In this document: piece by piece, positions 36,424 to 36,830 of the stretch
Numbering within the stretch: the stretch's first letter is position 1
Layout of the letters: each line of letters opens with the position of its first letter
Source: Escherichia coli
GTDB taxonomy: Bacteria > Pseudomonadota > Gammaproteobacteria > Enterobacterales > Enterobacteriaceae
DNA length: 64,000 nt
NCBI RefSeq assembly: GCF_003334785.1
Contig: NZ_QOWV01000007.1
Direction: 5' to 3' (one strand)
Position numbers and translations under genes: made by a program
The notes under the pieces: model-generated
Databases searched by the model: none
Told to the model about the DNA's origin: nothing
The model's input: the letters and a program-made list of their open reading frames with translations, nothing else

Positions 36424-36473
36424 CCTTTCCTGTACGTTTATACCCTCATCCTAAGGGCTGCCTCTTGTACATA

Positions 36474-36498
36474 AATCCCCGAGTCCGGGGATTTTTTG
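36474..36498 (+). terminator. Intrinsic terminator after rluA
   Basis: atccccgagtccgggga hairpin followed by tttttt, about 55 nt after rluA stop. Confidence 0.8.
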
Positions 36499-36792
36499 TT
36501 TCTGCCAAACTGCTTTCAGTTGTTGCGTGTGGCTACGCTTTCCATTCGGTAATTCCCTTCCTGCTCCACAGCGAATTTTTGAACTTTTTCTTCACCCGTT
36601 GACCGTCTCTTATATTTCATTTTAACGGGTCTGTTATGGTCCTTTCTGATTGTTATTCATGGGCTAATTAGCAGTCTGGTTGGCGATGCCCATCTCGGTG
36701 ATCCGTGTCCTGCACGACGCCTTGCGTCACTAGCCTCTTCTCTAGCTCATCATGCAGGTCTTTCTAATTGTGAAATCATCCCACGCTACTGC

Positions 36793-36828
36793 TAAGGTTG
36801 AAGGGGCGTTCCAGCCCCTTCAACCTTA
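36793..36828 (-). terminator. Near-perfect 14-bp-stem hairpin directly 3' of the pentapeptide-repeat ORF
   Basis: taaggttgaagggg-cgttccag-ccccttcaacctta; no clear U-run on minus strand, so terminator function is uncertain. Confidence 0.5.
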
Positions 36829-36830
36829 GC

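Follow-up and report, generated by a model that had tools for sequence, protein, structure and literature searches.

A pentapeptide-gene islet between rluA and djlA of Escherichia coli is edged by what is very probably the decayed left end of an ISEc13-like insertion sequence

The 407 bp that separate rluA from a neighbouring pentapeptide-repeat gene in Escherichia coli are, at a probability that we put at roughly 0.9, the non-functional, decayed left end of an ISEc13-like insertion sequence (IS4 family, IS50/Tn5 type) lying in a horizontally acquired islet. We studied this interval in a 64,000-nucleotide stretch of E. coli DNA (the window), where it occupies positions 36424-36830 within the gene order rapA-rluA-[interval]-pentapeptide ORF-djlA-lptD. 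An earlier reading of the letters alone (the sequence-only reading) had correctly placed it between rluA, which ends at 36423 (+), and a pentapeptide-repeat ORF, which has 273 aa and lies at 36831-37652 (-), and the two hairpins by which it bounded the interval are both real, as judged by terminator scan and folding. It had also reported no ORF of 60 or more codons on either strand, which our ORF listing bears out, the longest within 36424-36830 being of 45 aa (36465-36602 +), 34 aa (36516-36620 -) and 32 aa (36527-36625 +). The absence of a long ORF across 407 bp of non-coding DNA is not unusual in itself. The interval has a GC content of 45-46%, compared with 52-60% in rluA. The statement that it has no assigned function was wrong: RefSeq/PGAP already annotates the equivalent of 36636-36814 (+) as a frameshifted, incomplete pseudogene, ‘IS4/Tn5 family transposase DNA-binding protein’.

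The interval is an IS remnant or pseudogene, as RefSeq already labels it, and is of a known kind. The literature on yabQ, ISEc13, espY1 and rluA yielded no description of the rluA-espY1 interval, and three of its details may have gone unrecorded until now: a terminator-like hairpin imported with the IS, a palindromic junction of apparent snap-back origin at the espY1 stop codon, and an outward promoter seemingly born in the relic. All three are ordinary outcomes of IS decay and leave current understanding unchanged. Their value is mainly one of annotation hygiene, in that a long ‘empty’ intergenic region of K-12-like E. coli is a transposon scar edging the espY1/yabPQ islet. The features, in window coordinates, are as follows.

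36424-36457 (no strand): 34-bp islet-specific spacer from the rluA stop codon to the IS end, outside ISEc13; divergence from empty-site genomes starts right after the rluA stop
36458-36476 (+): left terminal inverted repeat (IRL), CTGCCTCTTGTACATAAAT, with 15/19 matches to the ISEc13 IRL, CTGTCTCTTATACACAAGT; BLAST homology sets in precisely at 36458 (IS position 1)
36473-36500 (+): IS-internal hairpin and T-run, predicted intrinsic terminator of rluA in islet-bearing strains (terminator scan, fold)
36477-36635 (+): IS 5' leader, from the IRL to the transposase start codon, with 88-89% identity to ISEc13 and no difference at all over one 57-nt block
36611-36624 (-): core of an outward-facing promoter, with a published TSS at 36611 and a -10 element, TAAAAT, as the reverse complement of 36619-36624
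36636-36813 (+): transposase pseudogene of the IS4/Tn5 family, first ~58 codons (N-terminal DNA-binding region) (PGAP, translations, alignment)
36636 (+): transposase ATG
36669-36671 (+): transposase lesion, TAG at codon 12 (alignment)
About 36682-36685 (+): transposase lesion, 4-nt insertion (alignment)
36766 (+): transposase lesion, 1-nt insertion (alignment)
36791-36830 (no strand): perfect 17-bp palindrome at the IS truncation point (fold and ISEc13 homology)
About 36812-36816: end of homology and truncation point of the transposase (alignment)
36831-37652 (-): islet cargo, an intact 273-aa EspY1/YabPQ-type pentapeptide-repeat gene (ORF)
36424-37945 (no strand): whole accessory islet, in place of the REP/BIME spacer between the rluA and djlA stops (empty-site and outgroup comparison)

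Identity of the insertion sequence remnant

The parent family was found by blastn against plasmids, a more sensitive search than megablast against 5426 complete E. coli genomes, in which window 36452-36812 showed 87-88% identity to ISEc13 left ends carried by plasmids of E. fergusonii and Salmonella. When compared by BLAST with an intact ISEc13 reference copy, delimited as 1564 bp (L007 3007-4570), window 36458-36812 corresponds to ISEc13 positions 1-351, with 87.9% identity over 356 columns (E 1e-125). The similarity extends over 355 bp and is not limited to some short stretch of low complexity. The ends of the intact copy, CTGTCTCTTATACACAAGT and AGATCTGATCAAGAGACAG, correspond to the Tn5 outside and inside ends, and its 457-aa transposase (WP_000244368.1) matches Tn5 transposase structures (E 5e-83) as well as NCBIfam IS4 models. 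At the protein level, a frameshift-repaired translation of the relic (MVLSDCYSWAN/SLVGDAHLGDP...RRLASLASSLAHHAGLS) agrees with the N-terminus of this transposase at 32/42 residues (E 2e-19), and the repaired 51-aa relic peptide reaches no model in an NCBIfam scan.

Among the marks of an IS4/IS50-type element, the stub therefore has homology to a named member in both nucleotides and peptide, and a CTGTCTCTTATACACAAGT-type terminal inverted repeat at the element end. It has neither a right inverted repeat with a 9-bp target-site duplication nor an intact DDE transposase with a Tn5-like catalytic core, the ~58 N-terminal codons that are left carrying a stop and two frameshifts. Across the 64-kb window we detected no IRR- or IRL-like 19-mer (<=3 mismatches), and BLAST returned no ISEc13 segment beyond IS positions 1-351. 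Since the right IS end is missing across the window, we regard the stub as a truncated relic and not as an element, and it is no longer able to transpose. Its likeness to ISEc13 comprises, besides the 88% nucleotide identity over IS positions 1-351, the 19-bp end type (Tn5 outside-end-like), the end-proximal hairpin, the position of the start codon and the N-terminal transposase sequence. It differs in keeping 22% of the element, in lacking the right end, the catalytic DDE domain and the target duplication, and in its broken frame. Given the 12% divergence, the stub appears to derive from a related isoform and not from ISEc13 itself, which would be only a relative of the true parent. With the right IS end and target-site duplication absent, insertion at the rluA-djlA site cannot be reconstructed, and truncation may just as well have taken place elsewhere, with the IS then arriving together with espY1.

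We considered whether the interval might instead encode a small protein, either the 45-aa ORF or a truncated transposase peptide acting as a DNA-binding regulator. The PGAP product name does suggest an N-terminal DNA-binding fragment, and in certain IS families a transposase cut down to its N-terminus is able to work as an inhibitor, but the transposase frame has its TAG at codon 12 followed by +4 and +1 frameshifts, all of them common to all lineages, and the 45-aa ORF, which is without support, has TTG as its start codon and runs across the IS repeat and hairpin. A coding role is accordingly highly improbable, and we retain the reading of the interval as a decayed IS end.

A candidate IS end at 36604-36620 (CCGTCTCTTATATTTCA), chosen for its resemblance to the Tn5 mosaic end, was rejected, as the alignment puts the true end at 36458. 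The leader block at 36497-36553 (57 nt) is identical in the relic and intact ISEc13 despite the overall divergence of 12%; it is partly deleted in the pMAR2 subgroup, so the identity probably reflects chance or recent exchange and not constraint. Other left-end-only relics of the ISEc13 family, unannotated and truncated near or before the transposase start, are found on many F-type and other plasmids (for example, L094 2001-2230 and L006 3928-4100), and 202 plasmid records match at 60-80% identity. The stub resembles such solo or partial IS remnants, known from effector-islet edges and F-type plasmids, in being a one-ended IS scar beside horizontally acquired cargo. It differs in that its break is closed by a perfect 17-bp inverted duplication lying right against the stop codon of the neighbouring gene, a feature that neither of the two plasmid relics examined shows.

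Distribution and ancestry of the islet

When a 2-kb query was compared with the 5426 complete E. coli genomes, we found two states. The full arrangement of rluA, stub, espY1/yabPQ and djlA is present in 2081 genomes (~38%), and the other 3345 match the flanks only (~24% of the query). The interval and espY1 co-occur almost without exception, the former being found in 2082 genomes and the pentapeptide gene arrangement in 2081. One suggestion of the sequence-only reading, that the interval may mark the junction where the AT-rich pentapeptide-repeat gene was inserted, is essentially right: the interval occurs only with that gene, and genomes and species without the gene have rluA and djlA adjacent and lack the interval, which is not carried there unchanged. 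What that suggestion did not include is that the interval itself is a mobile-element scar.

At empty sites, the rluA and djlA stops lie ~115-150 bp apart with REP/BIME sequence between them. Islet-bearing and empty genomes part directly past the rluA stop and agree again only from the djlA stop, and because the divergence spans stop to stop, we delimit the islet as window 36424-37945 (~1.5 kb). Among GTDB species representatives scanned with RluA, rluA and djlA are convergent, 34-176 bp apart and without the islet, which is absent from E. albertii, a divergent E. coli representative, Citrobacter, Pseudocitrobacter, Kluyvera, Leclercia, Enterobacter and others (~40 other Enterobacterales species). 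This absence from outgroup species indicates that the islet is derived.

These comparisons also bear on whether the interval could be native E. coli intergenic DNA older than the pentapeptide gene, for example a terminator region or REP-like spacer. A textbook terminator-like hairpin 50 nt after rluA would fit such an origin. The interval is, however, missing in 3345 of the 5426 E. coli genomes and in all outgroup species, rluA and djlA are in these genomes separated by REP/BIME or by a simple bidirectional terminator, the sequence diverges immediately past the rluA stop, and the hairpin belongs to ISEc13. The synteny comparison refutes a native origin, to which we give next to no credence. 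REP consensus palindromes (GCCGGATGCGGCG-type) are absent from the interval and present in empty-site genomes, so that the interval is not itself of the REP/BIME class. It shares with REP/BIME the same genomic slot between convergent genes, and its palindromes may likewise punctuate or stabilise 3' ends, but there is no sequence relation, REP/BIME being what the islet replaced. In some islet-free genomes, IS621 (IS110 family) is inserted in the REP between rluA and djlA (for example, E. coli TCM3e1, L005 1430-2700); IS621 targets REP elements, with which this insertion is consistent.

Six divergent islet-bearing lineages (K-12-like, O157:H7, O7:H15 and others) agree in the stop codon, in both frameshifts and in the sequence of the palindrome. 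As these lesions and the palindrome are identical, one ancestral event suffices for all, and the comparison points to such a single event behind all of the islet variants examined. The islet, comprising the IS stub and espY1/yabPQ, would have replaced the ancestral REP spacer between rluA and djlA once, in an ancestor of the ~38% of sequenced E. coli that carry it, and the stub would be the rluA-side edge of this ~1.5-kb horizontally acquired segment with espY1/yabPQ as its cargo. A search for the donor context, by tblastn of the EspY1-like protein against plasmids, gave mislabelled chromosome records only.

The palindrome at the truncation point

The hairpin on the espY1 side had been described as a palindrome with a 14-bp stem; its stem is in fact a perfect 17 bp, with arms at 36791-36807 and 36814-36830 around a 6-nt loop (dG -35.6 on the + strand and -34.5 on the - strand, z about -7), and no shuffled sequence folds as well. 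The left arm and the loop (36808-36813) are transposase coding sequence. The corresponding region of ISEc13 reads GCTCAGGTTGAAGGTGCGTACCGCC... and encodes ...AQVEGAYR..., in the region of the Tn5 EGAYRF motif. Homology to ISEc13 spans the left arm and loop and ends at 36812, possibly reaching the GCC at 36814-36816. The right arm repeats the left one exactly in inverted orientation, and its last base directly precedes the espY1 stop codon. Since one arm is transposase sequence and the other its inverted copy, the palindrome marks the truncation point, and the second bounding hairpin is a rearrangement junction. It is invariant in the six diverse E. coli lineages.

The loop of the palindrome is not self-complementary. 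The right arm opens with GCC, three bases that are still common with ISEc13 and can pair with a GGC in the left arm. The palindrome is most simply explained by snap-back or template-switch repair primed on this GCC/GGC microhomology, in which a 3' end would have folded back and been extended by ~14 nt during loss of the remaining IS. Fold-back (snap-back) inverted-duplication junctions and template-switch mutations are known classes, and the likeness to them lies in the inverted copy of the adjacent 14-17 nt, the short non-palindromic loop and the 3-nt microhomology at the switch point. The difference is that here the process is deduced from sequence alone, and we found no intermediate or sister allele without the palindrome duplication. 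So understood, the junction would offer a tidy natural case of an inverted-duplication repair scar. By prediction, the palindrome probably also forms a barrier where transcription of espY1 and of rluA/IS converges and stabilises 3' ends there.

Predicted termination of rluA by the IS hairpin

The first hairpin has a 9-bp stem (36473-36494) with the loop GAGT, followed by TTTTTTGTTT (dG -14.8 kcal/mol, z -3.8), so that 36473-36500 (+) has the GC-rich stem-loop and subsequent U-tract of an intrinsic terminator. The same CCCCG-loop-CGGGG hairpin lies directly inside the terminal repeat of intact ISEc13 (-17.4 kcal/mol) and also occurs in the pMAR2 subgroup of ISEc13, and the T-run is improved in the relic (ATTTTTTGTTT, versus ATTTGTTATTT in intact ISEc13). 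As the tail of the relic is richer in T and the hairpin stands 50 nt after the rluA stop, the hairpin and T-run probably terminate rluA transcripts in islet-bearing strains, making this an apparent rluA terminator brought in by an insertion sequence. The hairpin had earlier been called the rluA terminator outright; the structure stands on the + strand, its origin is an IS-internal hairpin conserved in intact copies, and its role for rluA is a prediction. Among the curated 3' ends of Adams 2021, there is no entry for the U-tract of 36473-36500 at MG1655 5960x-5961x, a weak test as rluA is perhaps too weakly expressed.

Transcription of the interval and the small RNA question

Published K-12 data were placed on the window by the conversion window = 96110 - MG1655, with the window + strand equal to the MG1655 - strand; this conversion was derived from K-12 records matching at 59280-59686, and the gene positions tabulated in Adams 2021 agree with it. 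The comparison of start sites covers the MG1655 + strand (window -). Cappable-seq identified a TSS at MG1655 59499 (+) with an RRS of 24.8 (cut-off 1.5) and a log2 enrichment of 4.1 (Ettwiller 2016, PMC4782308), which corresponds to window 36611 (-), 25 nt upstream of the transposase ATG and divergent from it. Read from the sequence, the -10 element TAAAAT lies at -13 to -8 of this TSS. TAAAAT is found in all E. coli relic variants and intact ISEc13 has GAAAAT at the same place, from which the promoter seems to have been born in the relic or its parent isoform. Scanning with the sigma-70 consensus gave no promoter on the + strand of the interval, and the scan also missed the published minus-strand TSS because of a poor -35.

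A Rho-termination region is reported at MG1655 60116 (+), antisense to rluA (Adams 2021, PMC7815308), 617 nt downstream of TSS 59499. We infer that the two belong to one transcript, which would start at 36611 (-), cross the IS end into rluA antisense and be terminated there by Rho. This is best understood as pervasive antisense transcription that starts in a decaying mobile element and is ended by Rho, and not as a dedicated sRNA, and the relic-born promoter would then show how decaying mobile DNA seeds such transcription. Outward-reading promoters of insertion sequences are well known, among them pOUT of IS10 and the hybrid or outward promoters of IS1, IS2 and IS5, and the relic resembles them in that a promoter in the IS end directs transcription through the terminal repeat and on into the flank. 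It differs in that its -10 is apparently new when compared with intact ISEc13, and in that its product is antisense to a housekeeping gene and apparently Rho-terminated, being neither an antisense regulator of the transposase nor an activator of a downstream gene.

The sequence-only reading had offered an unannotated small RNA as an alternative, and had named a lack of transcription among the findings that would count against it. Transcription there is, from the one published K-12 TSS in the interval (36611 -). It resembles antisense read-through more than a discrete small RNA, with no discrete 3' end at the K-12 positions checked, and this alternative is not supported as it was stated. A bona fide small regulatory RNA would have its own promoter and terminator, with one of the hairpins as its 3' end, and for this there are a real 5'-triphosphate start at 36611 (-) with a good -10, the first hairpin ~120-140 nt downstream on the - strand (with a weak U-tract) and, on the + strand, the palindrome followed by TTATTCT. 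The curated Term-seq data of Adams 2021 (PMC7815308), however, contain no 3' end within MG1655 prefixes 5927-28, 5931-32 and 5960-67, the hairpin positions covered, that would give a defined short transcript, and the Rho-termination region within rluA antisense implies read-through. No described RNA family or conserved structure emerged either: an Rfam E-value search over 35700-38000 returned sub-threshold noise only, its best match scoring 19 bits where the gathering score is 70, and being confined to the terminator hairpin, and the 172-nt RNA predicted from the TSS to the IS end shows no unusual degree of structure (z -1.5). The sequence is moreover IS-derived and varies among lineages without obvious constraint, and the SMRT-Cappable-seq supplements contain nothing for these genes. 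Taken together, we consider a dedicated small RNA very unlikely and favor antisense read-through from the relic.

The same features could be read as a domesticated stub, confined to islet-bearing E. coli, in which the hairpin is the rluA terminator, antisense RNA from the relic promoter tunes rluA and the palindrome insulates or stabilises the 3' end of espY1/yabQ. RluA is the main mRNA and tRNA pseudouridine synthase, and if domestication were true, a strain-specific regulatory module would have been built from a dead transposon. This is a doubtful proposition that we think very unlikely to hold; termination at the hairpin, punctuation by the palindrome and outward promotion are likely by-products, residual activities of the decayed IS end.

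The espY1/yabPQ cargo and the djlA side of the islet

The pentapeptide ORF at 36831-37652 (-) encodes an intact EspY1/YabPQ-type protein of 273 aa with a WEX5F-like motif (WETLRHLF). The same gene is frameshifted into yabP and yabQ in K-12 and is annotated as the T3SS effector EspY1 in O157, where the protein has 245 aa and is 79% identical to the 273-aa protein; an NCBIfam scan of the 273-aa ORF gave no match. Two arrays of 15-bp tandem repeats lie within espY1, with 7.5 copies of GGTAGCACCGTCCAG at 36975-37086 and 3.1 copies of ACTTCTTTAGTAGCA at 36880-36925. They encode the pentapeptide and C-terminal repeats, and their copy number is strain-variable, K-12-like records being 15 bp shorter.

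At the djlA-side edge of the islet, a small terminator-like hairpin is present on the - strand (37905-37892, with the tail CACTTCTTTG), flanked by an imperfect 30-nt inverted repeat (37846-37875 and 37919-37948, 73% complementary), and from this predicted structure the islet may also supply the djlA terminator. Cappable-seq further reports seven weak sense-strand TSS inside yabP/yabQ (RRS 2.5-9; window ~36911-37337 (-), which is MG1655 58773-59199 +), typical of spurious promoters in AT-rich acquired DNA. The yabQ transcript is also one of only four that were reported to be destabilised in a pcnB (PAP I) mutant.
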